This document shows, in pieces, positions 8,480 through 38,556 of a DNA stretch of 62,244 nucleotides. The notes under the pieces are model-generated. The model saw only the letters and a list, made by a program, of their open reading frames with translations. It ran no database searches and was not told the DNA's origin. The number at the start of each line of letters is the position of its first letter. The stretch's first letter is position 1. The position numbers and the translations under genes are program-made. This DNA comes from Acidobacteriota bacterium. GTDB taxonomy: Bacteria; Acidobacteriota; Vicinamibacteria; Vicinamibacterales; UBA2999. The stretch spans positions 1 through 62,244 of the forward strand of contig JBEGVQ010000090.1 in assembly GCA_041178345.1 (NCBI GenBank). The letters are read 5' to 3'.

Positions 8480-8483
8480 GAAT

Positions 8484-10031: not shown

Positions 10032-10682
10032 ATGATCCATTGGTTTCGTGCTCGTACGAGCACTTTGCTCAATCTCGTGCGTCACTGGGCACCCGTCCGC
10101 CGCGTCGCCACCGCGCAGTTGCCGACCGAGTTCGGTGAGTTCACGATTCACGTCTTCGAGAACGGGCTGGGCGGCGGCACCCACGTCGCCATGGTGCGCG
10201 GCGAGATCGGCGACGGCGAGAACGTGCTGGCCCGCGTCCATTCCTCGTGCCTGACCGGCGACATCTTCCACTCGGCGCGATGCGACTGCGGCGAGCAGCT
10301 GCACGCGGCGCTCCAGCGGATCTCGGACGAGGGCCGCGGCGTGCTGCTGTATCTCAACCAGGAGGGCCGCGGCATCGGCCTGGCGAACAAGATTCGCGCC
10401 TACGCCCTGCAGGAGGCCGGCTGCGACACGGTCGAAGCCAACGCCCGCCTCGGCTTTCCGGCCGACCTGCGCGACTACCGCGCGGCCATTCGCATGCTGC
10501 AGGATCTTGGCGTGCGCTCAACCCGCTTGATGAGCAACAACCCGCGCAAGCTGGCGGGCATCACCGGCGAGGGCCTGTCAGTGAGCGAGCGCCTGCCGAT
10601 TGAGATCCTGGCCAACGCGGCCAACCAACGCTACCTGAAGACCAAGAAAGACAAGCTCGGTCACCTGCTCTCATCGGTGTAG
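10032..10682 (+). CDS. ribA: Stand-alone GTP cyclohydrolase II (RibA-like, no DHBP synthase domain)
   Basis: RVHSSCLTGDIFHSARCDCGEQL (Zn cysteines), QEGRGIGLANKI.AY.LQ, D.RDY, SNNPRK, YL.TKK.KLGH. Confidence 0.93.
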   Translation: MIHWFRARTSTLLNLVRHWAPVRRVATAQLPTEFGEFTIHVFENGLGGGTHVAMVRGEIGDGENVLARVHSSCLTGDIFHSARCDCGEQLHAALQRISDEGRGVLLYLNQEGRGIGLANKIRAYALQEAGCDTVEANARLGFPADLRDYRAAIRMLQDLGVRSTRLMSNNPRKLAGITGEGLSVSERLPIEILANAANQRYLKTKKDKLGHLLSSV

Positions 10683-10685
10683 CCG

Positions 10686-12254
10686 GTGTTCGCCGCCGCC
10701 GCCCTGCTGTTGCTGAACGCGTCGCTGACGTTCGGCAATGTCTGGCCCACCCCGAAGATTCGCTGGGAGAATGCGCTGTCGGTGGAACTCGCCGTGTGCG
10801 TACTGCTGCTGGCGGTGGCACACCAACGGGCCGAGCGCCTGGCCCGGCGCCTGCTGCCGGTGCTGTGGGTCCTGCTGGTTGCAGGCCATTACCTCGATGT
10901 GACGGCCCCGGGTCTGTACGGCCGCGACTTCAACCTCTATTGGGATTCCCGCCACCTGGGCAACGTCACCGCCATGCTGGCGCGCGCCGTGCCGGCGTGG
11001 CAGATCGTGGCGGCGGCGGCCGGCCTGGTGACTGTCATCGCGGCCGTGTCCCTGCTGTCCCGGCTCGCCCTCCGGCATCTCGCCGCCGCCGTGCAGCACC
11101 GCCGCGCGCGGCTCGTGCTCGGGTCGGCGGCGGCGCTCGTGATTGCCGCCTTCGCGCTGCAGCAGTTCACGGCGTTCGTGCCGGCCCAGCCGGCGTTTGC
11201 CGATCCCGCGACCGGCGCCTATTTGCGCCAGGCGCGCTACGTCGTGGCCATGGCCGCGACGGGCGGCGCCTCGCCGGTGCTGGGCGACAGCCCTGACTTT
11301 GGCGCCGCTGAGTTGCGCGGCCTCGACGGAGCGGATGTCGTGCTGGTGTTCCTGGAATCCTACGGCGCGGTCACGTTTGACAACCCGGCGTTTGCCGACA
11401 CGCTGGCGGCGACCCGGCGCAACCTGGAAGCCGCGGCCCGCGACGCCGGTCGCGAGTTGCTCTCGGCCTATGTCGAATCGCCCACTTTCGGCGCGTCATC
11501 GTGGCTCGCGCATCTCAGCCTGCTCACCGGCGTGAAGGTCACCGATCAATACGAGTACACCTCGTTGATGGCATCGTCTCGCGACACCATCGTGAAGGCG
11601 TTCGGCCGCGGCGGCTATCGCACCGTGGCGTTGATGCCGGGCATGCGACAACCGTGGCCCGAAGGCGCGTTCTACGGCTTCGACGAAATCTACGGGCGTG
11701 ACCTGCTGGCGTACCAGGGCCCCGAGTTCGGGTGGTGGGGCATTCCCGATCAGTTTGCGCTCGCCCGGCTCGATGCGCTCGCGCGCACCGCTGCGCCACG
11801 GCCACCGCTGTTCGCGGTGTTTCCGACCAGCACCTCGCACGCGCCGTTTGGCCCGGTGCCGCCGTTTCTGCCGGAGTGGTCACGCGCGCTGCAGGCAGAC
11901 GGCTACCGTCCCGAGGACGTCGCGCGTGCCGCAGCGCCCAACCTGACCGACCTGGCGCCGAGCTACTTGAGCGCGATCGCCTACGGCTACGACACGCTGG
12001 CCGGCTACCTCCGCGCCCATGCGGGCGAGAACCTGGTGGTGATTGTGATTGGCGATCACCAGCCGCCAGCGGCGGTGAGCGGCCGCACCGCGGTCCGTGA
12101 TGTGCCAGTGCATGTGATTGCCAGCCAGCCTGGGTTACTGAGCCGTCTGCGCGAGAGCGGCTTCCACGACGGCCTCGCGCCAGGTCGGCCTGGCGCCGGC
12201 GAGATGCACGCGCTGGCGCCACGGTTGTGGGAGGCGTTCAACGCCGGCCGGTGA
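10686..12254 (+). CDS. Membrane-anchored sulfatase / LTA-synthase-like (AlkP superfamily) hydrolase/transferase
   Basis: ~5 N-terminal TM helices; VVLVFLESYG, SPTFGASSWLAH, TSHAPF, GDHQP metal motifs. Confidence 0.8.
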   Translation: MFAAAALLLLNASLTFGNVWPTPKIRWENALSVELAVCVLLLAVAHQRAERLARRLLPVLWVLLVAGHYLDVTAPGLYGRDFNLYWDSRHLGNVTAMLARAVPAWQIVAAAAGLVTVIAAVSLLSRLALRHLAAAVQHRRARLVLGSAAALVIAAFALQQFTAFVPAQPAFADPATGAYLRQARYVVAMAATGGASPVLGDSPDFGAAELRGLDGADVVLVFLESYGAVTFDNPAFADTLAATRRNLEAAARDAGRELLSAYVESPTFGASSWLAHLSLLTGVKVTDQYEYTSLMASSRDTIVKAFGRGGYRTVALMPGMRQPWPEGAFYGFDEIYGRDLLAYQGPEFGWWGIPDQFALARLDALARTAAPRPPLFAVFPTSTSHAPFGPVPPFLPEWSRALQADGYRPEDVARAAAPNLTDLAPSYLSAIAYGYDTLAGYLRAHAGENLVVIVIGDHQPPAAVSGRTAVRDVPVHVIASQPGLLSRLRESGFHDGLAPGRPGAGEMHALAPRLWEAFNAGR

Positions 12255-12314
12255 CCTCGTCGAGACCGTGCCAACCGCGCCGCGAGCCCGGCGGTCGTGC
12301 GCAGCGGCGCCCGG

Positions 12315-12764
12315 TCAGGCTTGCGACTTCGAGTCGCCGAGGCCTGGTGGCGCGTACAGGAACCCGAACGACTGCGCGCCCTGGCGGCTGTGCGTCTTGT
12401 GGTGCACCAGGTGGGCCATGATGATCCGCCGCAGGTAGGCCCACTGCGGGATCCGCCGCAGCGTCACGCGCCTGTGCACGACGATGTCGTGGAAGAGGAA
12501 GTAGATGACGCCGTAGCCGGTCATGCCGAGGCCAACGGGCAGCATCCACGAGCCATCGCGCACGCCGGCGTCGATCAGCAGGATCGACGGCACCGCGAAC
12601 AGCACGCCGAACAGGTCGTTCCACTCGAAGAACCCGCGGTGCGGCACGTGATGCGACCGGTGCAGGAACCAGAGCGGACCATGCATCAGGTACTTGTGCG
12701 CCAGGTAGGCCACCCCCTCCATGGCGAGGAGCGCGGCGAGGAATAAAGCGACGAATCCGATCAT
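12315..12764 (-). CDS. crtZ: Beta-carotene hydroxylase (non-heme di-iron)
   Basis: ME..AY.AHKYLMHG.LW.LH.SHH, FEWNDLF, FHDIVVHRR, HLVHH, SFGFLYA. Confidence 0.92.
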   Translation of the reverse strand: MIGFVALFLAALLAMEGVAYLAHKYLMHGPLWFLHRSHHVPHRGFFEWNDLFGVLFAVPSILLIDAGVRDGSWMLPVGLGMTGYGVIYFLFHDIVVHRRVTLRRIPQWAYLRRIIMAHLVHHKTHSRQGAQSFGFLYAPPGLGDSKSQA

Positions 12765-12787
12765 CTGATCACTGAGGCTAGCACGGT

Positions 12788-13735
12788 TCAGTTGGGCAGC
12801 ACTGGCCGTTGCCAGAGCCCCTCGCGCGCGGCCATCGGGGCGAACCGGGAGACGTGACGTGCCCACGCCGCCTCAACGAACGCCTGCATGAGTCGACGCA
12901 ATTTGTGCCCGCTCGACGTCGACACCCGCTCGTTCCACGCCTGCCCGCGGCGGCGGCGCACTTCATGGCCGATGTCGGCGTAAACATGGCGCGCCGTGGC
13001 AATGGCCCAGGCGCTTCGGAAGGGCAGACGCGGGACGCCCATTGACGCCGACCGGTAGTAACGATCGGCCTCGTCGAGCAACCGGCTGACGACCGCCACA
13101 ACCGCCGCCCGGTTCTCCGGGTTCATCAGGCGCGCGGCGTCGGCGACGCCACCGGCCTGGCGCAACCACTCTCCGGGCAGATAGACCCGGCCGGCGGCCG
13201 CGTCATCACCCACGTCGCGGGCAATGTTCGTGAGCTGGAACGCGAGCCCAAGGTCGCAGCCGCGCACCAGCGTCGGTTCGTCGCGGACGCCCATGAGCCA
13301 CGCCATCATGAGCCCGACGACCCCGGCGACGTGGTAGCAGTATTCCAGGGTGTCGTCGAGCGACCCGTACTCCCGCCTCGCCACGTCCATCGCAAACCCG
13401 TCCAGGTGCGCGTGCACGTAGGCGGCCGGGAGGCCGGTCTCGCGCACCACGTGGGCGAGCCCGGCAAAGGGCGCCAGGTCAGTGGCGCGCCCGGTGAGTG
13501 CCTGCGCGGTCTGCGCGCGCAACGCGGCCAGCGCGGCGCCGCCCTGCGTCCCGGTGGCGATCGCGCCGTGCCCCAGCACCTGCCCGTCCACCACGTCGTC
13601 GCAGTGCCGGCACCAGGCGTAGAGCTGCCAGACGAGGAGGCGGGTGCGGCGGTCGAACAGCTGCGATGCGGCCGCGAAGCTCTTCGACCCCCGCCGGATC
13701 GCCGCATTGGCAAACGGCGGACCCGTCGGGGTCAT
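12788..13735 (-). CDS. crtB: Phytoene synthase
   Basis: GSKSFAAAS.LF, LYAWCRHCDDVVD, YCYHVAGVVGLMMA, LGLAFQLTNIARDV.DDA..GRVYLP; ATGA overlap with crtI. Confidence 0.95.
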   Translation of the reverse strand: MTPTGPPFANAAIRRGSKSFAAASQLFDRRTRLLVWQLYAWCRHCDDVVDGQVLGHGAIATGTQGGAALAALRAQTAQALTGRATDLAPFAGLAHVVRETGLPAAYVHAHLDGFAMDVARREYGSLDDTLEYCYHVAGVVGLMMAWLMGVRDEPTLVRGCDLGLAFQLTNIARDVGDDAAAGRVYLPGEWLRQAGGVADAARLMNPENRAAVVAVVSRLLDEADRYYRSASMGVPRLPFRSAWAIATARHVYADIGHEVRRRRGQAWNERVSTSSGHKLRRLMQAFVEAAWARHVSRFAPMAAREGLWQRPVLPN

Positions 13736-15243
13736 GCTCCGGACCGCTCGGCCGCGAGGTCCGCGATCATCAACCCGGCCGTGGCAATCGCCGAGTTCAC
13801 GACACCGGGTACGCCGGCGCCGGGGTGGGTGCCGGCCCCGACGAAGTACAGGTTCGCAATTCTGTCGTCGCGATTGTGGACGCGGAACCAGGCGCTCTGC
13901 GTCAGGACCGGCTCGAGCGAGAACGCCGACCCATGGTGCGCGTTCAGCTGCTGCTGGAAGTCGAGCGGGGTGAAGATGCGGCTGGTCACCAGGTCGTTGC
14001 GCAGGTTCGGGATATAGCGCGCCTCGAGATACTCGAAGATCCGGTCGCGGTAGCGGGGCCCTTCGACCGCCCAGTCCACGTCGGAGATGCCCAGGTGCGG
14101 GACCGGCGAGAGGACGTAGAACGCCTCGCATCCCTCGGGCGCGAGGGACGGGTCACTGAGCGTCGGGGCGTGGAGGTAGAGCGAGAAGTCGTCGGCCAGC
14201 GTGCCGGCGTCGAAGATGTCGTGCAGCAGTGCTTTGTAGCGCGGCCCGAAGATGACGTTGTGATGGGCCAGGTGCGGGTGGCGTTGCTTGGTCCCGAAGT
14301 AGATCAGGAACAGCGACATGCTGAACTGTCGCCCGGCCATCGAGCGGCCCATCCTCACGCCGCGCGGGTCGTTCCGCATCAGCTTCTGGTAGGTGTGCAC
14401 GACGTCGGCGTTGCTGCCGACCGCGTCGGTGGCGATTTCCTCACCCGCCGCGGTGCGGACCGCCACGACTCGTCCGTCGCGCGTGACGATCTCGTCCACC
14501 GGGGTGTTGAGGCGGATGGTCCCGCCAAGCCGCTCGAACAGCGCGACGAGCGCGCGCACCAGCGCGCCGGTGCCGCCGCGTGGAAAGGTCACGCCCCATC
14601 GCCGCTCGAGGGCGTGAATCAAGGTGTAGATCGATGACGCCGAGAACGGATTCCCGCCGACGAGCAGGGAGTGGAAGCTGAAGGCCTGGCGCAGGTGCTC
14701 GTCCTTGATGTAGCGCGCGACCATCGCGTACACGGAGCGGTAGGCCTCGAGTCGCACCAGCTCCGGCGCCACCCGGATCATGCTCCAGATGTCGAGGAAT
14801 GGCACGTGGGCCAGTTCGGTATAGCCCGCCTTGAAGACCGCCTCGGCGTAGTCCAGGAACTGCACGTAGCCGTCGGCGTCCGAGGGGCTGCGCTCCCGGA
14901 TCTGGCGCAGGACTGACTCGAGGTCGTTCGAGTAATCGAACACGTGCCCGTCTTCCCAGAAGAGGCGATAGAACGGCAGGACCGGGATCAGGTCGACGTG
15001 GTCTGCGAGCTTTTCCCCCGCCAGCGTGAAGAGGTCCTCGAGGCATCCAGGCGCGGTGATGACCGTGGGACCGGCGTCAAAGGTGAAGCCCTGGTCCTCG
15101 AACACGTAGGCCCGCCCGCCCGGCTTGTCGCGCTGCTCGAGGATCGTGGTCGCGATTCCCGCTGCCTGCAGGCGAATCGCCAGCGCGAGGCCGCCGAATC
15201 CGCTGCCAATCACAATCGCTCGTCGTCTCGTCGTCATCGTCAT
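13732..15243 (-). CDS. crtI: Phytoene desaturase (CrtI)
   Basis: VIGSGFGGLALAIRLQAAG, GFTFDAGPTVIT, LLVGGNPF, FYVLSPVPHLG, GAGTHPGAGVPGV. Confidence 0.96.
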   Translation of the reverse strand: MTMTTRRRAIVIGSGFGGLALAIRLQAAGIATTILEQRDKPGGRAYVFEDQGFTFDAGPTVITAPGCLEDLFTLAGEKLADHVDLIPVLPFYRLFWEDGHVFDYSNDLESVLRQIRERSPSDADGYVQFLDYAEAVFKAGYTELAHVPFLDIWSMIRVAPELVRLEAYRSVYAMVARYIKDEHLRQAFSFHSLLVGGNPFSASSIYTLIHALERRWGVTFPRGGTGALVRALVALFERLGGTIRLNTPVDEIVTRDGRVVAVRTAAGEEIATDAVGSNADVVHTYQKLMRNDPRGVRMGRSMAGRQFSMSLFLIYFGTKQRHPHLAHHNVIFGPRYKALLHDIFDAGTLADDFSLYLHAPTLSDPSLAPEGCEAFYVLSPVPHLGISDVDWAVEGPRYRDRIFEYLEARYIPNLRNDLVTSRIFTPLDFQQQLNAHHGSAFSLEPVLTQSAWFRVHNRDDRIANLYFVGAGTHPGAGVPGVVNSAIATAGLMIADLAAERSGA

Positions 15244-16379
15244 CCCATCAGGCGCGGGTCGCGCAGGTGCGCGAGCGCGCGGAGTACCGGCACCGGGGGC
15301 CGGCCGGTCATCAGCCGGACCTGGTCCGAACGCGTCAACTGCGCCGCGTAGAAGCGGGCGATCAGGCCGGCCGGGCGGCGATAGAACTGCTCCAGCACCC
15401 GCACCCGCTCGGCGGGGCGGGCCGCGCGGAACAGCAGTCGATTGAGGAGCCGGAAGAAGCCACGGGCTTTCCACCGGGCGGTCGCGAACCCGCGGAGCGC
15501 GCCGGCAGTCTGGGCCGGGTCGCCGAGCGCAAGCTGCGTCAGCAGGTCAGCCGTGGCCACCGCATCGGGGAGCGAGTAGCCCGTCGTCGGGTGAAAGAGA
15601 CCCGCGCGCATGCCGATGCGCGGCTGCTCGTCTGGCCAGAACGCGTCGATCGAGCCACCGAGCGGCAGCGGCAGGCTCCCGACCTCTTCACGCACGAGCG
15701 CGCGCGGCGGCCAACCGCGGGCTGCCACATAACTCGCGATCGCGGTACGCGCCGTGTCCACGTCCACCGCCGGATGGTCCGCGTAGCAGGTGTCCTCGAC
15801 GAGTAACCGCCGCGGCGTGAACGGCAGCACGTACACGAAGCGGTAGCCGTTGTCCTGCGCCACCGTCGCGTCCATGATCGTCGGCGTGGTGACGCCGTGA
15901 TCCTGCTCGAACTCGAGTTCCTGGCCCAGAAACGTCTGCCAGCCGCACGGCACGCTCACCGGCAAATCGCCACGTCCATCAATCACGACTGACGCCCGCA
16001 GCACGTCTCCGGTTCCCAACACCACATGATCCGGGGCCACATGCGCGATTGGGGTGTCCAGGAGGAGGTTGTCGCCAAGCGCCGGCGCGATCACGTCGTG
16101 AAGGCGCGTGGACGTGATCGACGCGTAGGGCCCGGCGATCGTGCGGGAGTGTCCCGGGAAGCGGACGCTGTGTTCGGGCCAGCGGGCGACGACCAGGCGG
16201 TCAAGCCAGTCGCGTGCAGGGCCTGCGAGGTCGGTGTCGTGGAACGACCAGGTGTGATTGCCACCGAGCGTTGGGCCGCGCTCGATCAGGCGGACGCGCA
16301 CATCGCGCCTGGTGCTGACCAGGCGCCATGCGGCGAGGCTGCCGGCGAGCCCGCCACCTGCGATTACGACCTCGACCAT
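15240..16379 (-). CDS. crtY: Lycopene beta-cyclase (CrtY)
   Basis: IAGGGLAG, GGNHTWSFH, Q.FLGQE, MDATV.Q..GYRFVY.LP, AGLFHPTTGYSLP, LI.RFYA. Confidence 0.95.
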   Translation of the reverse strand: MVEVVIAGGGLAGSLAAWRLVSTRRDVRVRLIERGPTLGGNHTWSFHDTDLAGPARDWLDRLVVARWPEHSVRFPGHSRTIAGPYASITSTRLHDVIAPALGDNLLLDTPIAHVAPDHVVLGTGDVLRASVVIDGRGDLPVSVPCGWQTFLGQELEFEQDHGVTTPTIMDATVAQDNGYRFVYVLPFTPRRLLVEDTCYADHPAVDVDTARTAIASYVAARGWPPRALVREEVGSLPLPLGGSIDAFWPDEQPRIGMRAGLFHPTTGYSLPDAVATADLLTQLALGDPAQTAGALRGFATARWKARGFFRLLNRLLFRAARPAERVRVLEQFYRRPAGLIARFYAAQLTRSDQVRLMTGRPPVPVLRALAHLRDPRLMG

Positions 16380-16443
16380 CTGGACTGGCTAGGGTAGCAC
16401 GCGGGTTCGCCGCGCTCTGTATACTGCCTTGGTAGGGTCCCGC

Positions 16444-17394
16444 ATGGAAGAATCTACTCCACGAGTGCTCGTCGTGCACGAGGCCGCGCGGTGCATCGAC
16501 CGACGCGAGGTGCTGGCCGGTGCGAGCATTCAGGTGCCCCGAGCGGCGATCGTCGGCCTCCTCGGCCCGAATGGCGCAGGCAAGACCTCGCTCCTGCGCG
16601 CGATCGCGGGCCGGCTGCGGCTCGACGCCGGTGAGGTTCGCATCGACGGCCTGCTGCCGCCCGCGGCACGACGGCTGGGGCGTCTCGGGATCGTGCCGCA
16701 GGAGATTGCCCTGTTCGCCCACCTCACGGTCGAAGAGAACCTGTCGGTGCTCGGGCGCCTGGCGGGGGTGCCGCCCGCCGCGCTGCGCGAGCGCGTGCGC
16801 GATGGCCTCGAATGGGCCGGCCTCGCCGATCGCTCGGACGCGATCGTCGCCACGCTGTCCGGGGGCATGAAGCGACGGGTGAATCTCGTCGCAGGCATGC
16901 TCCACCGTCCCGCGCTGCTGCTGCTCGACGAGCCGACCGTCGGCGTGGACGCCGACGCCCGGGCCCGGCTGCACGAACTGCTGCGGGCACTGCGGCACCA
17001 GGGCATCGGCCTGCTCATCGCGACCCACGATGCCGATGAGGCATCGGCGCTCTGCGATGACGTGGCGGTCATGGTCAACGGACGCGTGGTCGCGCAGGCA
17101 CCCATTGCGCACCTGGTGCGCGACGTCTTCGGCGATCGCCGCGAAGTCTCTTTGGTGATCGAACCGCCGGTATCCCCCGCCTGTGACGCGCTGCTGCGCC
17201 ACGAGCGTTTTCAGCCGGCCGGCAGGGGGCGGTGGGTGAGCCGCGGCAGCGCCGCCCACGCGGACCTCGACGTGCTGCTTCGCCGGCTGGCGGCCGCGGG
17301 CGGCCGAGTCGTCGAGACCCGCATCGCCGAGCCGCACCTGCGCGGGGCCGTGGCCCTGCTGGTCGAGCAGCACGGCAGCCGGCAGGCGGCATGA
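16444..17394 (+). CDS. ABC-2 type exporter, ATP-binding subunit
   Basis: GPNGAGKT, VPQEIAL, LSGGMKRR, LLLLDEPTVGVD, ATHD. Confidence 0.92.
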   Translation: MEESTPRVLVVHEAARCIDRREVLAGASIQVPRAAIVGLLGPNGAGKTSLLRAIAGRLRLDAGEVRIDGLLPPAARRLGRLGIVPQEIALFAHLTVEENLSVLGRLAGVPPAALRERVRDGLEWAGLADRSDAIVATLSGGMKRRVNLVAGMLHRPALLLLDEPTVGVDADARARLHELLRALRHQGIGLLIATHDADEASALCDDVAVMVNGRVVAQAPIAHLVRDVFGDRREVSLVIEPPVSPACDALLRHERFQPAGRGRWVSRGSAAHADLDVLLRRLAAAGGRVVETRIAEPHLRGAVALLVEQHGSRQAA

Positions 17395-20424: not shown

Positions 20425-20465
20425 CAGCGGCTCGGCTCCGTCCGTGGTGGGCGAACAGCAGGGAG

Positions 20466-20693
20466 CTAGTCGACGGTGATGCGCGTCCCCTGATCGTGCC
20501 GCGGGCCACCGGTACGCGCGGCGATCTGCTCGTCGAGCAGTGCGCTCAGTCCCTTCAGGATTTCCAGGTGGGCGTTCTTGAAGTGTTGCGAGACCCGCTC
20601 CGACGGACCGAGGTTGCGAAGGAACTCCGTGAGCACCGGCCCCGCGCCGTTGCAGCCACAATTGCATCCCGCCTTCGTTCCCGTATCACTCAT
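20466..20693 (-). CDS. Small hypothetical protein coupled to the ArsA/Get3 ATPase
   Basis: ATGA overlap with the ATPase stop; CNCGC motif, amphipathic helix HFKNAHLEILKGLSALLDEQI, C-terminal RITVD. Confidence 0.7.
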   Translation of the reverse strand: MSDTGTKAGCNCGCNGAGPVLTEFLRNLGPSERVSQHFKNAHLEILKGLSALLDEQIAARTGGPRHDQGTRITVD

Positions 20694-21880: not shown

Positions 21881-21884
21881 GGTT

Positions 21885-21921
21885 GTCAGTCGTCAGTCGT
21901 TGATGGTTAGTCGTTGGCCGT
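21885..21921. repeat. Degenerate heptamer tandem repeat (GTYAGTC-like x5)
   Basis: GTCAGTC GTCAGTC GTTGATG GTTAGTC GTTGGCC in the intergenic gap. Confidence 0.6.
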
Positions 21922-21930
21922 TTCGCCGGG

Positions 21931-23172
21931 TCAGCGCAGGTCGGCGAGGCAGGCCTCGGCGGCGCGGCGGCCGGCCGCGATCGCGCCATTGATGGACCCG
22001 TTCTCGCGGTGGTCGCCGCTGACGTAGAGGCCGGGCTTGATGCGCACCGGACGCGCGGCCGGGCTCAACGCCGGCGGCCGCTGGTCCGGCTGCGCGTAGG
22101 CGATCTGGTAGGTGCGCAGGTGCGTCCAATCGCCCACTTGCGGGCCGAACCACCCGGTCATCTGCTTGCGGATGCGGCTCACGAGCTGGTCGGTCGGACC
22201 CGCGACGGCGCCAATCAGCGTGGCCGCAATCAGCGCCTGCCCCGCCGGTGCGTAGCTCGGCGACACGTTGCTCATCACCGCGACGTTGTTCACGAGGCCC
22301 GAACGCTCCCCGTCGAGGAGGAGCACGGGCTCGGCGATCGGCGCCCTGGGCGCGGCAAAGTACACGCAGGTGCACGCGCGGGGCTGCGGCGGCGCCGGCT
22401 GACCCAGCAGGGCGGCGGCAGCGGAGCCTTCGGTGGCGACGACGACGGCGCGCGCCTCGAGGCGATCACCGCCCCATGTCTGGACCGCGGTGCCGTCGAT
22501 GCCCGCGACACGGCAGTTCCGCCGGATGGCCTCGGCCGGCAGGGTCGCGGCAAGCTGCGCCGGAATGGCCCCCATCCCCGCCGCCGGCACCACGCTGTCG
22601 CCGAGGGCGAACATCCGGAAGGTGAACTCGAACATGCGGCTCGAGGTGTCGAGTTCCGGGTCGAACAGCACGCCCCCGAAGAACGGCTGGAAGAACCGCG
22701 CCATCATTTGCGCGGAGAATCCCTCGGCGGCCAGCAGGTCGCGGGTGCGCTGCTCGGGGCGGGCCCACAGATCGTCCAGGGTGCCCGACAAGATGCGCCG
22801 GCGCAGCCGGGCCACGCGCGCCTTGTCGGCCAGCGACCCGACCGGCGCGAGCGCATTGAGCGCGGCCTCGATCGGCCGGCGCCACGGATCGACGACACGA
22901 TGGAACCTGCCGTCGACGCGGATGAGCGCCCCCGGGAGAAGCGGCTTCAGGTCGAGTGCGGCGTAGTCGAGTTCCCGCTGCGCGTCGGGGTAGGCGGTCA
23001 GCAGCACCTGGAAGCCGCGGTCGAGCAGGAATCCGTCGACGCGGTCCGTCCGCACGCGCCCGCCCACATCGTCCGACGCTTCGAGCAGCTGCACCGGGAT
23101 CCCGGCGGCATGCAGATACTTTGCACACGTCAGCCCTGCCAGCCCTCCGCCAATCACCACTACGGGCGCCAT
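21931..23172 (-). CDS. FAD-dependent oxidoreductase (amine oxidase / protoporphyrinogen oxidase-like)
   Basis: VIGGGLAGL, LEASDDVGGRVRTD, GFLLDRGFQVLLTAYP, SGDHRE.GSINGA..AGRRAA. Confidence 0.88.
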   Translation of the reverse strand: MAPVVVIGGGLAGLTCAKYLHAAGIPVQLLEASDDVGGRVRTDRVDGFLLDRGFQVLLTAYPDAQRELDYAALDLKPLLPGALIRVDGRFHRVVDPWRRPIEAALNALAPVGSLADKARVARLRRRILSGTLDDLWARPEQRTRDLLAAEGFSAQMMARFFQPFFGGVLFDPELDTSSRMFEFTFRMFALGDSVVPAAGMGAIPAQLAATLPAEAIRRNCRVAGIDGTAVQTWGGDRLEARAVVVATEGSAAAALLGQPAPPQPRACTCVYFAAPRAPIAEPVLLLDGERSGLVNNVAVMSNVSPSYAPAGQALIAATLIGAVAGPTDQLVSRIRKQMTGWFGPQVGDWTHLRTYQIAYAQPDQRPPALSPAARPVRIKPGLYVSGDHRENGSINGAIAAGRRAAEACLADLR

Positions 23173-23328
23173 CAATGTTTCCCTCGAGGCATGTTGTCCG
23201 AGCGTAAGACGCCCCGGACCCCGGGGCGGGTCCGAGACCAGCGCGGCCGGGGAACAGTGGAGCGGCCGTCATCCGGCCGCTGCGACGCTTCACCTCGGCC
23301 TCATGCCCCTCCCGGCGAGTTCAACACC

Positions 23329-23643: not shown

Positions 23644-24345
23644 CTATGCGCCCTGCCGTCGCCACAACCGCCGCACATCGATCCCGAATGACCACACCAA
23701 CGCCGCCAGCGTGATGGCCGCGACGATGGCACTGGCCGGGAAGGAGACGGCCGGGGCGAGGGCCAGGCCGAGCCCGGCGAACTGCCCGACGGCGACGCTC
23801 TTGCCGCGAAGGGTTGGCTTCAGCGGACCGTTCATCCACGGCATCGCCCACCCGGCCGCGACGAACGCGTAGCGCATCAAACCACAGGCCAGCACCCATG
23901 CCCCGGCCTTGTCGTACCGCCACACAAACAGCGACAGCACCAGGATCAGCGAGGCATCGACCTCGACGTCGAAGCGGGCACCGAACGTGCTGGCCAGACC
24001 GGTTCGCCGCGCGAGCCAGCCGTCGACGCCGTCAAGCGCCGCCAGGCAGGCGGTGGCCCCCACCACGAACCACGCGAGTCTCTCGCTCGGCGGGTCCAGG
24101 AGACGGGTTGCCGCCAGCGCGACCACCGCCGCGCGGAGCATCGTGACGTAGTTGGCCGGCCCGAATCGCTCGAAGGGGTGATGGGCGCCGGCCGTGGCGA
24201 CGACGACCGCCATCATGACGGCGAACACCGCAGCCGCCTCAACCGAGGCGACGGACAGGGCGGCGGCGCCGAAACCGCTCGCGAGCAGGACCTGAATACG
24301 AAGAGGCAAGGGCGGCATTGTAACTGGGAGAGAATGGGAGACCAC
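23644..24345 (-). CDS. CDP-alcohol phosphatidyltransferase family protein
   Basis: GPANYVTMLR and signature DGVDGWLARRTGLASTFGARFDVEVD; multiple TMs; start may be ATG 24318. Confidence 0.92.
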   Translation of the reverse strand: MVSHSLPVTMPPLPLRIQVLLASGFGAAALSVASVEAAAVFAVMMAVVVATAGAHHPFERFGPANYVTMLRAAVVALAATRLLDPPSERLAWFVVGATACLAALDGVDGWLARRTGLASTFGARFDVEVDASLILVLSLFVWRYDKAGAWVLACGLMRYAFVAAGWAMPWMNGPLKPTLRGKSVAVGQFAGLGLALAPAVSFPASAIVAAITLAALVWSFGIDVRRLWRRQGA

Positions 24346-24358
24346 GAATCTGGCAAGC

Positions 24359-24389
24359 TGGTGATTTGGTGATTTGGTGATTTGGCGAT
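24359..24389. repeat. Octamer tandem repeat TGGTGATT x3 + partial
   Basis: TGGTGATT TGGTGATT TGGTGATT TGGCGAT in the short divergent intergenic gap. Confidence 0.8.
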
Positions 24390-25359
24390 GAGTAGGGACG
24401 CGAAGGCGTTCTGGGTGGCTGAACCAGGACGCGGTGAGATCAGGGCGGAAGAACTGCCGGCGCCCGCCCGCGACGAGGTCGTCGTGCGCGCGCTGTTTAG
24501 CGGCATCAGCCGCGGCACCGAGGCGCTGGTCTTCGGCGGCCGCGTCCCGCCCAGCGAGTGGGCGCGCATGCGCGCGCCCTTCCAGGCGGGCGAGTTTCCG
24601 GGGCCGGTGAAGTACGGCTACTCCATGGTGGGCATCGTCGAGGAAGGCCCCGCGGAACTAGCGGGGCGCCACGTGTTCGTGCTGCATCCGCACCAGGACC
24701 GGTTCGTCGTGCCGGCGGGGGCCGTGAGCGTTCTGGCCGTCGGCGTGCCTCCGGCGCGAGCGGTGCTGGCCGCCAACCTCGAAACCGCGCTCAACGGCAT
24801 CTGGGATGCCCGGCCGCACATCGGCGATCGCATCGCCGTGATCGGCGCCGGCACGGTCGGCCTGCTGACGGCGTGGCTCGCCAGCCGGTTGCCCGAGTGC
24901 GTCGTGGAACTCGTCGACATCAATCCCAATCGCGCCCGTGTCGCGCAAGCGCTGGGTGTTGCTTTCGCGATACCATCGACCGCCGCCGGCGACGCGGACA
25001 TCGTGATTCACGCCAGCGGGTCGCCGTCAGGACTGGAGCTGGCGCTGGACCTGGCCGCGAGCGAAGCGACGATCGTCGAGATGAGCTGGTTTGGCGATCA
25101 AGTTGTCTCGCTGCCGCTGGGCGGAGCATTTCACTCGAAGCGCCTGACCCTGGCGTCGTCACAGGTCGGCCGCATCGCCCCGGCCCAGCGCGCCCGGTGG
25201 GACCATGGCCGCCGGATGCAACTGGCGCTCGGGATGCTGCGCGAACCGGCGCTCGACGCCGTAATCACGGGCGAGAGTCCATTCGACCAGTTGCCGGAAG
25301 TCATGGCCGGCCTGGCGCGAACCCCAGGCGAGACGCTGTGTCACCGCATCCGCTACTAG
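24388..25359 (+). CDS. MDR (zinc-binding dehydrogenase family) oxidoreductase lacking canonical Zn ligands
   Basis: EVVVRALFSGISRGTE, PVKYGYS.VG.VE, VIGAGTVG nucleotide-binding motif. Confidence 0.85.
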   Translation: MSRDAKAFWVAEPGRGEIRAEELPAPARDEVVVRALFSGISRGTEALVFGGRVPPSEWARMRAPFQAGEFPGPVKYGYSMVGIVEEGPAELAGRHVFVLHPHQDRFVVPAGAVSVLAVGVPPARAVLAANLETALNGIWDARPHIGDRIAVIGAGTVGLLTAWLASRLPECVVELVDINPNRARVAQALGVAFAIPSTAAGDADIVIHASGSPSGLELALDLAASEATIVEMSWFGDQVVSLPLGGAFHSKRLTLASSQVGRIAPAQRARWDHGRRMQLALGMLREPALDAVITGESPFDQLPEVMAGLARTPGETLCHRIRY

Positions 25360-25431
25360 CACCCCACCGCGCAAAGTCCGCGCGGCGGGGATCCCGCGAT
25401 TGACCCTTGGCGACGACAGAAGGAGACCTCG

Positions 25432-25842
25432 ATGTATTACGTGACGGTGCGCGACCACATCATGATCGCGCATAGCTTCCGGGGCGACGTGTTCGGCCCG
25501 GCCCAGCGTCTGCACGGCGCCACCTATGTGGTCGATGCCGAGTTCCGCCGCCCCGATCTCGATGCCGACGGCATTGTCGTCGACATCGGCCGCGCCGGCG
25601 AGGCGCTGAAGAAGGTGCTGGCCGACTTGAACTTCCGCAACCTGGACGAGGTGCCGGAGTTCAAGGGCAAGAACACCACCACCGAGTTCATTGCGCGAAC
25701 CGTGTTCGACCGGATGGCGGCGGCGATCCACCGCGGTGACCTGGGGCCCTGCGCCGGGGCCGTGGAGAGCTTGCGTGTGACGCTGCAGGAATCGCACGTG
25801 GCGTCCGCGGCGTACGAAGGCCGCATCGGCGGCGCTGCCTGA
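25432..25842 (+). CDS. Atypical 6-pyruvoyl-tetrahydropterin synthase / QueD-fold protein (COG0720)
   Basis: [40 protein letters not shown]; no CxxxHGH motif. Confidence 0.88.
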
Positions 25843-25844
25843 CC

Positions 25845-26900
25845 ATGCCGTCGGCCGTGTTCATGGTGCCTGGGTCGATCGACGCCAGAACCGGCGGTTC
25901 GATCTACGACCGGCGCATGGCTGACGGCTTGCGCCGGCGGGGCTGGGACCTCACGGTCGTGGAACTCGCGGGCGACTTTCCGCAGCCTGCGGCGGTCGCG
26001 GTGGCTGATGCTGCCCAGGCGCTGGCGGCGCTGCCAGACGGCACGCTGGTGGTGATGGATGGGCTCGCGCTCAGTGCGATGCCGGAGCTTATCGAACACG
26101 AGGCCTCGCGCTTGCGCGTCATCGCGCTCGTGCACCTGCCGCTTGCGGCTGATGTGAGCATTGATGCCGCATCCCGCGCCCGGCTGGCGGCCGGGGAGCG
26201 GCGCGCGCTCGCCGCTTCGACATTGGTCGTGGTCACCGGGGCGGCCACACTGGGCCTGCTCGAGCCCTACGCGCTGCCGCGCGATCGCGTGGCCGTGGTC
26301 GAACCCGGCACTGACCCGGCACCGCCGGCCAGGGGCGCTGACGGCACTCGCGTGCACCTGCTGTGCGTGGCGACGGTCAACGCCGGGAAGGGACACGACG
26401 TGTTGCTCGAGGCGCTGGCAGCCGTGCCGAATCGCGCGTGGCGCCTCACGTGCGCCGGAAGCCTCACGCGCGATCGCGCGGCCGCCGCCCGCATGCGCGC
26501 GCTCGTTGGCCAGCTGGAGCTCGACGATCGCGTGACCCTCGCGGGAGAGTTGAACGCGACCAGGCTGGCATCCTGTTACGACACCGCCGACGTCTTTGTG
26601 CTGGCCACGCGCCGCGAGACCTACGGCATGGCCGTGGCCGAGGCGCTGGCTCGTGGCCTGCCGGTAGTGAGCACGACGACAGGAGCGATTCCCGAGCTCG
26701 TGGGCGCCGACGCCGGAGTGGTGGTGCCGCCGGGCGAGGCGGCTCCACTTGCGGAAGCGCTGTCACGCGTCATCGGCGACGCGGACCTTCGCGCCCGGCT
26801 GGCAGCCGGCGCGCGCGCGGTTCGCGATCGCCTGCAAGGATGGGAGGTGGCCGCCGCCCGCATGGACGCTGCTCTCCAGGGACTCAATACCCATGCCTGA
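25845..26900 (+). CDS. Glycosyltransferase family 4
   Basis: TGGSIYDRR, KGHDVLLEAL, ETYGMAVAEALARGLPVV.T..GAIPE. Confidence 0.92.
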   Translation: MPSAVFMVPGSIDARTGGSIYDRRMADGLRRRGWDLTVVELAGDFPQPAAVAVADAAQALAALPDGTLVVMDGLALSAMPELIEHEASRLRVIALVHLPLAADVSIDAASRARLAAGERRALAASTLVVVTGAATLGLLEPYALPRDRVAVVEPGTDPAPPARGADGTRVHLLCVATVNAGKGHDVLLEALAAVPNRAWRLTCAGSLTRDRAAAARMRALVGQLELDDRVTLAGELNATRLASCYDTADVFVLATRRETYGMAVAEALARGLPVVSTTTGAIPELVGADAGVVVPPGEAAPLAEALSRVIGDADLRARLAAGARAVRDRLQGWEVAAARMDAALQGLNTHA

Positions 26901-27771
26901 CACTCTTGGTGACTGGTTGAAACTGCGCGAGGCGGCCGATTGGGAGGCGCGGTCGTCGCGGCTCGTGCAGCAGGTTGTCGGTGCGGCGCCCCATCCAGGG
27001 GCGCCTTACCACGTGTTGGACCTCGGAACCGGCACGGGTTCCAACGTTCGCTACCTGGCGGAACGCCTGCCGGGCCGCCAGCGGTGGCTGGTGGTTGACC
27101 GGAACCCTGAGGTGCTCGCCCTGGTGACCGAGCGTAGCGCGTCCTGGGCCGCGGCGCGCGGCTACCAATGCCACGCCCACGCGACGGCCCTTCACGTTCG
27201 ACACGCGCGGCTCGACTGCGAAATCGAGACGCGACAGCGCGACCTGTGTCGGCTGGACGACACCAGGCTCTTCGAGGGGCGGCACCTGGTCACGGCTTCG
27301 GCGCTGCTGGATCTCGTGTCCGAGTCGTGGCTCCAGTCGCTCGCCGCGCATTGCCGCGACGCGGGGGCGGCCGTGCTGTTTGCCCTCACCTATAACGGCG
27401 AATCATCCTGCTGGCCGGCGGAGCCAGAGGACGAGCTGATCCGGGAGTTGTTGAACCGGCACCAGCACACCGACAAGGGGCTGGGCGGCATCGCCGCCGG
27501 ACCGGATGCGGTGGCCTGCGCCGAACGCAGCTTCGTCGAGGCCGGCTACCAGGTGCACATCGAGCCGACCGACTGGAGCCTCGGGCCGCCGCACGCCGAC
27601 ATGCAGCGCTACCTGATTCGCGACTGGGCGGGTGCCGCGGGTGAACTTGCGCCCGACTTGCTGCCGCGCATCGCCAGTTGGCGCGATCGCCGGCTCGCAC
27701 ACATCGATGCCGGACGATCACGCATCATCGTTCGCCACCACGATCTCGCCGCTCGGCCGGCGACACCATGA
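26893..27771 (+). CDS. Class I SAM-dependent methyltransferase
   Basis: DWL.LREAAD..ARS, VLDLGTGTGSN.RYL, LVTASALLDLVS, HQ..DKGLG. Confidence 0.85.
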   Translation: MPDTLGDWLKLREAADWEARSSRLVQQVVGAAPHPGAPYHVLDLGTGTGSNVRYLAERLPGRQRWLVVDRNPEVLALVTERSASWAAARGYQCHAHATALHVRHARLDCEIETRQRDLCRLDDTRLFEGRHLVTASALLDLVSESWLQSLAAHCRDAGAAVLFALTYNGESSCWPAEPEDELIRELLNRHQHTDKGLGGIAAGPDAVACAERSFVEAGYQVHIEPTDWSLGPPHADMQRYLIRDWAGAAGELAPDLLPRIASWRDRRLAHIDAGRSRIIVRHHDLAARPATP

Positions 27772-28628
27772 CCGCGCCACCGGCACCCCGATTCGACCCC
27801 GCGCAGGTCCGCGATTACTACGATCGTCACTCAGCCACCTTTGTGTCCCGCGGCCAGGGTGGCGGCGCCATCCATCGCGCCGTGTGGGGGCCAGGGGTCC
27901 GCCACCGTGCGCAGGCGTTTCACTACGTCGAGGATCGCATCGCCGAGATCGCGCAGTCTTTGGCCGCGCCCGCAGGACACCCGCTCCACATTGTCGACCT
28001 CGGTTGCGGCGTGGCAGGAAGTGCGTGCTACCTGGCCCAGCGTCTGCCAGTACGGGTCACCGGCATCACGCTCAGCCCGGTGCAGGCCCGAATCGCTCAA
28101 ACCCGCATCCGCGACGCAGGCTTATCGGATCGTGTGGCATGCCTGGTCGGTGACTACAACGACCTCCAGGTGGAGGTCGGCACCGCGGATCTCGCGTATG
28201 CCATTGAGTCGTTCGTGCACGGCCCCGCGCCCGACCGCTTCTTCGCGCAGTGCCGGCGGTTGTTGAGACCAGGTGGGGTGCTGGTGATCTGCGACGACTT
28301 CCGCCGTCCCACCACCGATCCGCGAGCGGCCCTGGCCATCGAGCGGTTCTGCCGCGGCTGGCATGTCAACGCGCTGCTGGATCGAGAGGCGCTGCAGGCG
28401 CTGGCCGGCCACCCCAGCCTCGTCCATGACTCGACGGTGGACTTGACGGAGTACCTGGAACTCGGCCGCCCCCGCGACCGCGCCTTGAAGGCCTTGCTGC
28501 CGCTTCTCAATCTACTGCCGCTCGCCGCCGGCCGATTCGACTACCTGAGTGGCGGCAGCGCCTTGCAGGAATGCCTGGCGCAGGGCTGGGTGGGATACGA
28601 CTTCGTCGTCTTTCGAAGTGAGAAGTGA
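27768..28628 (+). CDS. Class I SAM-dependent methyltransferase (sterol/tocopherol/CFA-like)
   Basis: VRDYYD, IVDLGCGVAG, VTGITLSPVQ, AIESFVH, LRPGGVLVICD. Confidence 0.88.
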   Translation: MTAPPAPRFDPAQVRDYYDRHSATFVSRGQGGGAIHRAVWGPGVRHRAQAFHYVEDRIAEIAQSLAAPAGHPLHIVDLGCGVAGSACYLAQRLPVRVTGITLSPVQARIAQTRIRDAGLSDRVACLVGDYNDLQVEVGTADLAYAIESFVHGPAPDRFFAQCRRLLRPGGVLVICDDFRRPTTDPRAALAIERFCRGWHVNALLDREALQALAGHPSLVHDSTVDLTEYLELGRPRDRALKALLPLLNLLPLAAGRFDYLSGGSALQECLAQGWVGYDFVVFRSEK

Positions 28629-28634
28629 GAAGGG

Positions 28635-29597
28635 TTAGATCACTCGCGTGACGACCGGAGCGCGGTTGTCGGCGTGCTCGGTGTTGGTCCGCGAATTCAA
28701 CTCGCAGTCGAACAGCACGTCGCCGCCCATCCGGAACACCCGGTAGCCGGGACGCAGGCAGTCGCGCAGGCGCGCCTGTGGCGCCAGCCGAATGGCGGGG
28801 CGGCCATCGCCGATCAACACCGGCGCGATCGCCAGCTGCAGGCGATCCAGCAGGTCCGCCGCCAGAAACGCCGACACCGTCACGCCACCGCCTTCAACGA
28901 ACACGCGCGCACAGCCGTGCGCTCGCAGCCGTGCCAGCAATGCCCCGACCCCACCCGGGCCCTCGGCAATGCCGATGGCACGGGCATCGCCCACGTGTGT
29001 TTCGCCCGGCGCCAGCCGTGACTGCTCGCACACATACAGCGTCGGGGCCGCTGCGTCGGTGAAGAGCTTGAAGGCCGGCGCGAGCCGCCGGCCCGGATCG
29101 TAGATCACACGCAGCGGGTGTGGCCCGCTCACGTGGCGGGTCGTCAACTGCGGATCGTCAGCGGCCACCGTGCCGGCGCCGACGACGACCGCGTCGCACA
29201 GCGCGCGCATGCGATGCAGATGAACGATGTTGCCGCTGCCGGTGACGAACTGCGAATCGCCAGTGTGGGTGGCGATGAATCCGTCGAGGCTCTGGCCAAG
29301 GTGTCCCACGGTGATTGGCCGTGATGTCGTGGCGCTGCAAAGCGGCAGGTACAGATCGAGCAGGTCTGCCAGAGGGCTGCCGGCCGGCAGCCGCGAGTGC
29401 CAACCGGAGCCCGGCTGCCAATCGAGTACGGCGCCGTTGCTGTCTCCGCTCACCGGTTGCAGCGCCGAGCCGTCAAACGCGAGCAACCGTGCCCGACCAT
29501 CGCGTTCCAGCTCGCCGGCCATGGCACTTGCGGCGAGCAGCAGGGGCCAGGCGGCGTCGGCCAACGTCGATGGCGACGAAATGCTTTCTGGCGACAC
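28635..29597 (-). CDS. RibD C-terminal (reductase-only) family protein with unrelated N-terminal extension
   Basis: GQSLDGFIA, HRMRALCDAVVVGAGTV.ADDPQLT.R, VFVEGGG.TVS.FL, IAPVLIG.G; no HAE/PCxxC deaminase motifs. Confidence 0.88.
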   Translation of the reverse strand: MSPESISSPSTLADAAWPLLLAASAMAGELERDGRARLLAFDGSALQPVSGDSNGAVLDWQPGSGWHSRLPAGSPLADLLDLYLPLCSATTSRPITVGHLGQSLDGFIATHTGDSQFVTGSGNIVHLHRMRALCDAVVVGAGTVAADDPQLTTRHVSGPHPLRVIYDPGRRLAPAFKLFTDAAAPTLYVCEQSRLAPGETHVGDARAIGIAEGPGGVGALLARLRAHGCARVFVEGGGVTVSAFLAADLLDRLQLAIAPVLIGDGRPAIRLAPQARLRDCLRPGYRVFRMGGDVLFDCELNSRTNTEHADNRAPVVTRVI

Positions 29598-38553: not shown

Positions 38554-38556
38554 CAC

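Follow-up and report, generated by a model that had tools for sequence, protein, structure and literature searches.

A conserved GTP cyclohydrolase II and PTPS-IV gene module in Acidobacteriota and other phyla, with a proposed role in making a GTP-derived head group

Nine genes that appear to form one uncharacterised module were found on contig JBEGVQ010000090.1 of an Acidobacteriota bacterium (GCA_041178345.1; Vicinamibacterales; UBA2999). The window, meaning the whole 62,244-nt stretch of DNA analysed, is this contig, labelled C90 in a 3.46-Mb assembly of 210 contigs (completeness 93.7%). The genes encode GTP cyclohydrolase II (GCH II), an AlkP/sulfatase-like membrane-anchored enzyme (AlkP), a CDP-alcohol phosphatidyltransferase family protein (CDP-OH), an MDR-like dehydrogenase (MDR), a PTPS-IV type T-fold protein (PTPS), a GT4 glycosyltransferase, two class I methyltransferases (MT1 and MT2) and a RibD_C-only pyrimidine reductase. 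We propose that they make up a single accessory pathway, patchy in its distribution and probably spread by horizontal transfer. In outline, a GTP-derived polyol or pterin head group would be attached to lipid, given sugar and methyl groups, and put to use in the envelope, a general scheme that we regard as evenly balanced between right and wrong. Open reading frames (ORFs) were called by third-position GC and searched with Pfam and NCBIfam profiles. The two blocks of genes given in an earlier note on this DNA were confirmed, with a few start codons placed slightly differently (Table 1).

The same gene families recur together in many genomes. An alignment of PTPS homologues was scanned against one genome per species, giving at least 600 stretches, at least 591 of which encode a relative. 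The best 80 of these at least 591 loci were kept (numbered with the prefix L); many are short contigs, 48 span the full 20 kb, and neighbours were counted within 10 kb. With 22 window proteins as tblastn queries, matches in the 80 loci were found for PTPS (80), MDR (76), GT4 (74), MT1 (64), CDP-OH (57), RibD_C (55), AlkP (33), GCH II (29) and MT2 (9). The 48 full loci contain MDR in 47, GT4 in 45, MT1 and RibD_C in 44 each, CDP-OH in 39 and AlkP in 27, along with any GCH II in 21, an FkbM-type methyltransferase in 21, a creatininase-family gene in 19, YceI in nine, LPG_synthase_TM (MprF flippase-like) in seven and MT2 in six. Gene order is fixed, running CDP-OH (minus strand), MDR, PTPS, GT4, MT1, an optional MT2 or flippase-like gene, and RibD_C (minus strand), and GCH II, creatininase, further methyltransferases and AlkP often come next in the row. 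MDR adjoins PTPS (47/48 full loci) and is divergently paired with the CDP-OH gene in 39 of the 48. Polyangiaceae loci retain only RibD_C, MDR and PTPS.

Carriers of the 48 full loci are Acidobacteriota, Alpha-, Beta- and Gammaproteobacteria, Polyangiaceae and Gemmatimonadota. Labels among the 80 loci include Vicinamibacterales, Terriglobia, Variovorax, Hydrogenophaga, Halomonas/Vreelandella, Chromohalobacter, Inquilinus, Steroidobacteraceae, Polyangiaceae and Gemmatimonadetes. The same module is found on plasmids of Streptomyces, Methylosinus trichosporium OB3b (pOB3b1) and rhizobia, and a diverged version, with a PTPS-like protein of 33% identity, on a Haloarcula plasmid. Within Acidobacteriota it is present in 17 of 301 sampled genomes, and in six of nine genomes of the window's own family. 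Because the same families co-occur in 80 loci across phyla and in a fixed order, the grouping is far beyond chance. The co-conservation of the nine families on which the earlier note had staked its reading is thus borne out in several phyla, with MT2 found in only 9 of the 80 loci. That the genes are unrelated neighbours with a mere resemblance to a pathway is scarcely credible: the two blocks are 11 kb apart in the window and set inside a pyr operon, but the order is conserved in the 80 loci, on the Streptomyces plasmids and in the diverged Haloarcula module, and the blocks are contiguous in the relative L009.

A second form of the cluster (L075, L050, L069, L084 and others; also L088) has a GCH II of about 400 residues, a creatininase-family gene and an FkbM methyltransferase, and in Halomonadaceae and Streptomyces this form adds a flippase-like gene of the MprF type. 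The N-terminal part of the long GCH II resembles RibB, and the best NCBIfam match of this protein is PRK08815. On the Haloarcula sinaiiensis plasmid (L089 2213-11335), creatininase, CDP-OH, MDR, PTPS-like, GT4 and MT1-like genes were found. The PTPS-like protein there has PGPEG...HSHH in place of FGPAQ and 1281 database relatives, with only haloarchaeal names among the best 120 of these 1281 matches. PPOX-family neighbours, seen in Streptomyces and Haloarcula, were considered as a part of the module and rejected, being present in none of the 80 loci.

The 11-kb block that separates the two halves of the cluster holds a CrtZ-like gene, crtB, crtI, a lycopene cyclase, a polyprenyl synthase, a second amine-oxidase/desaturase, an ABC-2 transporter, a TPR/TAtT protein and an ArsA-like ATPase. 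In the same-genus genome G248 (L102/L103), which has the same pyrB/pyrC flanks as the window, the gap from AlkP to CDP-OH is filled by a 1362-residue ORF, an M28 peptidase and two-component genes, without carotenoid genes; in L009 the GCH II-AlkP pair directly adjoins CDP-OH, without an insert. Since G248 has other genes at this place and L009 has none, the block is a strain-level insert at a variable spot. Carotenoid genes, pyr genes and the rest of the middle block are absent from all 80 loci, save for weak (about 30%) ABC ATPase matches in 10. A link between the module and carotenoids or pigment was therefore rejected, and with it falls the suggestion of a photoprotective pigment that the earlier note had drawn from the adjacent carotenoid genes. 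The CrtZ-like protein (183 residues) has His motifs like those of CrtZ without a Pfam match, and the set is of the zeaxanthin type.

Housekeeping copies of the early enzymes are encoded elsewhere in the genome. Contig C178 carries RibBA (a second GCH II), a full-length RibD and riboflavin synthase together (ribD-ribE-ribBA), FolE is on contig C1, and contig C163 has a PTPS-family gene carrying CxxxHGH, the QueD motif. Given these three sets, the ribA/ribD pair of the window is an extra copy, other than the housekeeping route; its GCH II is 60% identical to the C178 RibBA. The separate complete rib operon expected in the earlier note was found as far as ribD-ribE-ribBA; its completeness was not shown, as lumazine synthase (ribH, PF00885) was not found in the assembly, an absence that shows nothing at 93.7% completeness. 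On C178, ffh follows ribBA, at the position where ribH often sits.

The window scan covered 50 ORFs, leaving out a few overlapping or short ones and the stretches 1-2311, 3023-4058 and 44780-46517. Among these 50, no match was found to DHBP synthase (ribB), lumazine synthase, riboflavin synthase (ribE), GTP cyclohydrolase I (folE) or QueC (queC), in agreement with the earlier note, which had reported these genes as absent from the window. A redundant or condition-specific supply of riboflavin or F420 precursors is a very improbable role for the module. GCH II and a RibD-type reductase are the first riboflavin enzymes and ribH was not found elsewhere in the assembly, but no deaminase, ribB, ribH or ribE lies among the scanned window ORFs, the C178 operon exists, and tight linkage to GT4, MT1 and CDP-OH has no place in flavin synthesis. 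As for F420, a 2016 review (PMC5041015) states in its available part, citing unpublished work, that PTPS-IV acts in F420 synthesis. However, the best match in the genome to the Fo synthase CofH (TIGR03551) scores 290 bits against a cut-off of 374, in an assembly 93.7% complete, and the cluster is in only the 17 of 301 sampled Acidobacteriota genomes. PF01933 was tried as an F420 marker and found uninformative, as the family matches E. coli and B. subtilis too.

GCH II matches PF00925 with 230 bits and TIGR00505 with 241.7 bits (cut-off 205.85). In an alignment to 2BZ0 it keeps the zinc Cys triad and the Tyr matching Y105 of E. coli RibA, which we take to be catalytic. This Tyr is kept in 29 of 29 cluster-linked GCH II genes of the 80 loci, 20 of which are accompanied by creatininase and nine of which are not. 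The GCH II of the Streptomyces plasmid (L088 14479-15138), in contrast to these 29 copies, has Met at the Tyr position (KLRAMAL). With a change of this Tyr to Met, GCH II stops at the formamido-pyrimidine product. The idea that creatininase is an ArfB-like deformylase tied to the Tyr-to-Met change was rejected as a general rule, given Tyr in 29 of 29, and the match of creatininase to the ArfB profile is weak (26 bits; cut-off 180). Because 20 of the 29 loci pair creatininase with Tyr-type GCH II, there is no need to assign it a deformylase role.

The reductase matches PF01872 with 118.2 bits, and no deaminase domain was found in it; it scores 93 against the cut-off of 156 for the full RibD profile TIGR00326 and 89.6 against 186 for the DARP reductase equivalog TIGR01508. 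Its best solved match is 6P8C, a 2,5-diamino-6-ribosylamino-4(3H)-pyrimidinone 5'-phosphate reductase (E 5.3e-26). As the nearest solved structure is this enzyme and a deaminase domain is missing, the gene fits a predicted reduction without prior deamination. Among the scanned window ORFs, neither the deaminase domain of a bifunctional RibD nor the accompanying ribB, ribH and ribE of a riboflavin operon was found.

PTPS is the most conserved gene of the module, with 60-76% identity across phyla among the matches listed. It matches PF01242 with 85.8 bits (cut-off 22.4), and its nearest solved structure is 3D7J, 'Uncharacterized protein SCO6650' (E 7.5e-49). Compared with E. coli QueD chains it has Ala24 at the Cys position, HGA for HGH and N67-F68 for D-H; the catalytic Cys, the third zinc His and the Asp-His pair of PTPS and QueD, residues with roles that we take to be as named, are thus lacking. 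The T-x-E, presumably the ring anchor, is kept, as TTE85 aligns with TSE of QueD and does not vary among 10 homologues. Without the Cys, the Asp-His pair or the third zinc His, PTPS-IV is predicted to be unable to work as PTPS or QueD, for which the available parts of PMC5041015 and PMC5445326 give the motifs CxxxHGH and CxxxxxHGH. It carries FGPAQ, and PF00925 and PF01872 genes are in its neighbourhood; both features are described for PTPS-IV, FGPAQ as its signature, in the part of PMC5445326 available to us. The link to a 'PTPS-IV' subgroup of COG0720, given in the earlier note, is therefore borne out.

The adjoining MDR gene is remote from characterised enzymes. Its ADH_zinc_N match is below cut-off (26.2 bits; cut-off 31.8) and no ADH_N domain was found, which sets it apart from zinc-dependent alcohol dehydrogenases. 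Matches to BchC and to polyol(-phosphate) dehydrogenases are weak or remote, and PDB matches cover the Rossmann part only. Searches of the ESM Atlas with MT1 and MDR returned only unnamed or generic clusters.

GT4 matches Glycos_transf_1 with 98.8 bits (cut-off 26.4) without reaching an equivalog, and its nearest solved structures are Tll1590 (which we take to be a sucrose-phosphate synthase), MshA, PimB' and BshA. MT1 matches Methyltransf_25 with 30.5 bits and has no significant solved relative (best E 0.005); its Atlas clusters are labelled 'hypothetical protein', and there is a weak match to ornithine-lipid N-methyltransferase. MT2 matches Methyltransf_11 with 67.1 bits, and with MitM, D-glucose O-methyltransferase and a sarcosine/dimethylglycine methyltransferase-like protein as solved relatives it resembles small-molecule O- and N-methyltransferases. 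Six full loci have MT2, and those of them with a listed gene order are all labelled Vicinamibacterales or Vicinamibacteraceae. The consensus of CDP-alcohol transferases is D-x2-D-G-x2-A-R...G-x3-D-x3-D. CDP-OH matches PF01066 with 56.7 bits (cut-off 22) and carries DGVDGWLAR...G...D...D, with Asp, Gly, Ala and Arg positions invariant in 37 orthologues; it is below equivalog cut-offs for pgsA (25 vs 109) and archaetidylinositol phosphate (AIP) synthase (20 vs 180). A conserved row uppS - cdsA (CDP-diglyceride synthase) - dxr - rseP was also seen at 54368-58479; cdsA would supply CDP-diacylglycerol for CDP-OH, and its nearness (25 kb) is probably coincidental.

The AlkP protein matches Pfam Sulfatase with 31.7 bits (cut-off 25) and has no sequence-level PDB match. 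Hydropathy gives five N-terminal hydrophobic segments. An AF2 model made from a 23-sequence alignment reached pLDDT 88.6 (40 for a single-sequence model), and its top Foldseek matches are LtaP, LtaS, Vibrio 3LXQ, full-length MCR-1, PbgA, GacH, EptC and BcsG. E224, S272 and H385 are invariant, D457 and H458 nearly so (at least 90%), and T267 is nearly invariant. The model is consistent with a membrane-anchored, LtaS/EptA-like enzyme, a putative phospho-head-group transferase. Other envelope genes recur with the module. In Halomonadaceae, MprF-type flippase-like genes separate MT1 from RibD_C, and in Streptomyces they follow MT1; YceI-domain genes accompany Variovorax clusters. MdoH/OpgH-like genes are present in 10 of the 80 loci (L050, L069, L060, L045, L078, L024, L067, L072, L080 and L033), and another adjoins the Methylosinus plasmid cluster (L087 7079-8881); no MdoH homologue was found in the window's genome. 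Among the 48 full loci, AlkP only is found in 27, MdoH only in five and neither in 16, and never are both found within 10 kb. The MdoH/OpgH-like protein may be an alternative envelope acceptor or exporter.

A five-step route may be drawn from these families. In step 1, which is well founded because of the GCH II family and its intact catalytic residues, GCH II would convert GTP to 2,5-diamino-6-(5-phosphoribosylamino)-pyrimidinone. RibD_C would then reduce the ribosyl chain to ribityl (step 2), the 2-amino group staying in place. As RibD_C, MDR and PTPS are the minimal conserved triad, MDR and PTPS-IV may act next, and in a speculative step 3 they would remodel the ribityl intermediate. The chemistry favoured here is oxidation of the 2'-OH to an Amadori-type ketone, such as GCH I forms; the ketone would close to a dihydroneopterin-3'-phosphate-like pterin, to be bound and processed by PTPS-IV with its ring-anchoring Glu. 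This specific chemistry, arrived at by chemical reasoning, falls a long way short of being probable. From families and linkage, CDP-OH would couple the polyol(-phosphate) to CDP-diacylglycerol (CDP-archaeol in Haloarcula) in step 4, GT4 would add a sugar and MT1/MT2 would methylate, following the logic of phosphatidylinositol mannoside synthesis. Finally (step 5), fold and topology suggest that after flipping the LtaS/EptA-like enzyme would transfer or polymerise the phospho-head group on an envelope acceptor. Whether pterin or pyrimidine, the head group of the earlier note remains conjectural in its chemical nature; the loading onto lipid by CDP-OH and the external use by AlkP gain indirect support from the AlkP segments and fold and from the flippase-like genes, while the lipid link itself is still conjecture.

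Several observations weigh against this route. CDP-OH is missing within 10 kb in nine of the 48 full loci, AlkP in 21 and GCH II in 27; the lipid and envelope parts are therefore not universal neighbours. Creatininase-family genes (19/48 loci) have no role in the scheme when GCH II keeps its Tyr, and a route to pterin that reduces and then oxidises seems redundant in a FolE-bearing genome. The CDP-OH profile matches PDB entries in the motif region only, with cholinephosphotransferases best (E 9e-6); as a substrate test this comparison was discarded, since it does not separate lipid from soluble substrates. Within the CDP-alcohol family, some enzymes (e.g. DIPP synthase) link two soluble molecules. 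For AlkP, the fold match is modest (TM-scores 0.3-0.5, identity 12-15%), and its invariant candidate nucleophile is Ser272, whereas LtaS and EptA use a Thr nucleophile. The placing of PTPS-IV in F420 synthesis by the 2016 review (PMC5041015, available part) also counts against it.

A more particular form of the lipid scheme is that the ring is retained, giving a class of GTP-derived ribityl-diaminopyrimidine or pterin glycoside lipids in Bacteria and Archaea, flipped and used for LtaS-like decoration or for a teichoic-acid-like polyol-phosphate chain. We hold this form tentatively, as possible rather than probable; if true, it would give PTPS-IV its first function. A soluble product is unlikely, though not negligibly so: a pterin or pyrimidine glycoside or a cofactor (pteridine-glycoside-like, or like methanopterin or F420), for which CDP-OH would make an internal phosphodiester and AlkP would be separate. 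In keeping with a soluble product, the minimal clusters hold only RibD_C, MDR and PTPS, the solved GT4 relatives Tll1590, MshA and BshA act on soluble sugar- or polyol-phosphates, the CDP-OH profile identifies no lipid substrate, 21 of 48 loci have no AlkP gene within 10 kb, and the available part of PMC5041015 ties PTPS-IV to cofactor F420. Set against these are the divergent pairing of CDP-OH with MDR in 39 of 48 loci, the recurrence in the clusters of membrane or periplasmic genes (MprF-type flippase-like, YceI, LtaS-like and MdoH-like), the translational coupling of GCH II to the LtaS-like gene in the window, and the lack of a CofH above cut-off in the genome (290 vs 374 bits).

Another alternative is that GTP serves only as the source of ribitylamine and that the head group is aminopentanetetrol (APT), N-methylated by MT1/MT2. 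This is improbable: none of the cluster's enzymes belongs to a type known to break the pyrimidine-N bond, the anchor for a 2-amino-4-oxo ring is intact in the T-fold protein, which suggests that the ring is retained, and GT4 and MDR are left unexplained. To our knowledge, APT lipids have also not been reported from carriers such as Streptomyces, Halomonas and Variovorax. It is nevertheless true that a CDP-alcohol transferase and as many as three methyltransferases are encoded in the cluster, that MT1 weakly matches ornithine-lipid N-methyltransferase and MT2 matches sarcosine/dimethylglycine N-methyltransferases, that a diverged cluster is found in Archaea, and that APT lipids are known in Methanomicrobiales and some haloalkaliphilic methanogens and reported for Aquificales. 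Archaeal APT lipids occur in mono-, di- and trimethyl-amino and O-methyl forms according to the available parts of PMC6423904 and PMC2686161, and the biosynthesis of APT lipids was not dealt with in the literature found on aminopentanetetrol.

The closest described region is that of Streptomyces SCO6650. The Streptomyces plasmid has CDP-OH, MDR, PTPS, GT4, MT1, a flippase-like gene, creatininase and GCH II in the same order, and, judged by sequence, the window module is the counterpart of the SCO6650 region. It differs in that the Streptomyces GCH II has Met for Tyr and the cluster has a creatininase-family gene, with neither RibD_C nor AlkP lying within 10 kb; MT2 and the LtaS-like gene are additions of the window. 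Like the pathway of phosphatidylinositol and its mannosides, the module pairs a CDP-alcohol transferase with a GT4, PimB' and MshA being among the GT4 relatives and a polyol phosphate acceptor being proposed. However, the polyol of the window is proposed to be GTP-derived rather than inositol, methyltransferases and an LtaS-like enzyme are added, and phosphatidylinositol phosphate (PIP) synthase matches the CDP-OH profile only at E 0.019. AlkP shares N-terminal hydrophobic segments and an extracytoplasmic AlkP fold with enzymes of the LtaS/LtaP, GacH, EptA/MCR-1/EptC, BcsG and OpgB types, from which the low identity and TM-scores given above and the candidate nucleophile Ser272, as against Thr, set it apart; its own Glu and Asp-His positions are conserved. 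The module thus resembles known head-group pathways, but the head group would be of an undescribed kind.

Pathways of riboflavin and pteridines offer partial parallels. In the early archaeal and fungal riboflavin route (GCH II/III, ArfB, ArfC/Rib7), GCH II is likewise followed by a stand-alone DARP-like reductase, and creatininase-family (ArfB-like) genes are present in many related clusters, but the window module has no deaminase, lumazine synthase or riboflavin synthase. The toxoflavin cluster consists of ToxA methyltransferase, ToxB GCH II, ToxE RibD, ToxC and ToxD. Both clusters contain a GCH II of their own together with a RibD homologue and a methyltransferase, whereas the reductase of the window has no deaminase domain, and PTPS-IV, MDR, GT4, CDP-OH and the LtaS-like gene play no part in making toxoflavin. 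No ToxC- or ToxD-like genes were found among the scanned window ORFs, as the earlier note had said. Pteridine glycoside pathways of cyanobacteria and Chlorobium combine a PTPS, a reductase and a glycosyltransferase and start from GCH I. In the window, too, a PTPS-family protein is accompanied by a dehydrogenase/reductase and a glycosyltransferase, but this PTPS is without the catalytic residues and membrane enzymes are attached; no pteridine glycosyltransferase is among the 12 solved GT4 relatives at E <= 1e-6.

The association of PTPS-IV with GCH II and RibD_C has been in print since 2017 (PMC5445326, available part). Neither the wider module, with its lipid and envelope enzymes and its reach across two domains of life, nor the mechanism proposed here was found in the literature searched, supplements aside, and, in line with the earlier note, no product for the cluster was found there. 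The known link is extended here to a fixed module of eight to ten genes, with CDP-OH, GT4, methyltransferases, flippase-like and LtaS/EptA-like genes, around a protein (PTPS-IV/SCO6650) for which a crystal structure exists and no published function was found. If the lipid reading is true, heterocycles made from purines would represent a type of lipid head group or envelope decoration not seen before, which could bear on membrane charge, on UV and redox chemistry and on Acidobacteria lipid biomarkers. Culturable carriers exist in Methylosinus trichosporium OB3b, Chromohalobacter, Halomonas, Variovorax and Streptomyces.

Table 1. Genes of the module and the inserted block in the window (positions in nucleotides of the 62,244-nt contig).
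Feature	Position	Strand	Basis and remarks
GCH II (GTP cyclohydrolase II)	10032-10682	+	PF00925, TIGR00505; extra paralogue, proposed first step
AlkP/Sulfatase-like membrane-anchored enzyme, 522 aa, LtaS/EptA-like, putative phospho-head-group transferase	10686-12254	+	Pfam Sulfatase, Foldseek
Carotenoid/ABC block, outside the pathway	12315-23175		Pfam; splits the two halves of the cluster
CDP-OH (CDP-alcohol phosphatidyltransferase family, membrane)	23644-24345	-	PF01066; divergent from the MDR gene
MDR-like NAD(P) dehydrogenase, uncharacterised subfamily	24388-25359	+	ADH_zinc_N below cut-off
PTPS-IV type T-fold protein, SCO6650 family	25432-25842	+	PF01242, FGPAQ
GT4 glycosyltransferase	25845-26900	+	Glycos_transf_1
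MT1, class I S-adenosylmethionine (SAM) methyltransferase, uncharacterised family	26893-27771	+	Methyltransf_25
MT2, second class I methyltransferase, lineage-restricted accessory	27768-28628	+	Methyltransf_11
RibD_C-only pyrimidine reductase, conserved N-terminal extension of ~90 aa	28635-29597	-	PF01872

The GCH II stop is 3 nt before the AlkP start; PTPS, GT4, MT1 and MT2 abut or overlap, the MT2 start overlapping the MT1 stop (ATGA). The spacing and overlaps in both groups are as expected in operons. Contigs from RNA libraries of four studies (metatranscriptomes) match GCH II, AlkP, CDP-OH, PTPS/GT4, MT2 and RibD_C with 0-2 mismatches and span the GCH II/AlkP and PTPS/GT4 junctions. This is a hint of transcription only, since DNA carry-over is possible in RNA libraries; some bins of the stretch are uncovered in some runs, and nothing is drawn from these gaps.

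The G+C content of the window is about 68%, and its proteins have their closest homologues in entries labelled Acidobacteriota or Vicinamibacterales. No Rfam match (riboswitch or other RNA) at gathering score was found anywhere in the window. The module and its insert are flanked by pyrR-pyrB (8478-9970) and a dihydroorotase-like gene (29723-31027). GCH II begins 61 nt past pyrB on the same strand, and read-through from the pyr promoter may occur. Upstream of pyrR is a Phd/YefM antitoxin gene (7900-8184, minus strand), and further upstream, at 4059-7560 (plus strand), are a type I phosphodiesterase-family protein and an amidase. On the other side, a quinohemoprotein amine dehydrogenase cluster (33880-40964) includes an alpha subunit complete in its four domains, a gene resembling radical-SAM maturases, an unassigned 373-residue ORF, an ABC exporter and a subtilase fragment; the sole radical-SAM gene of the window (35634-37094) belongs to this cluster.

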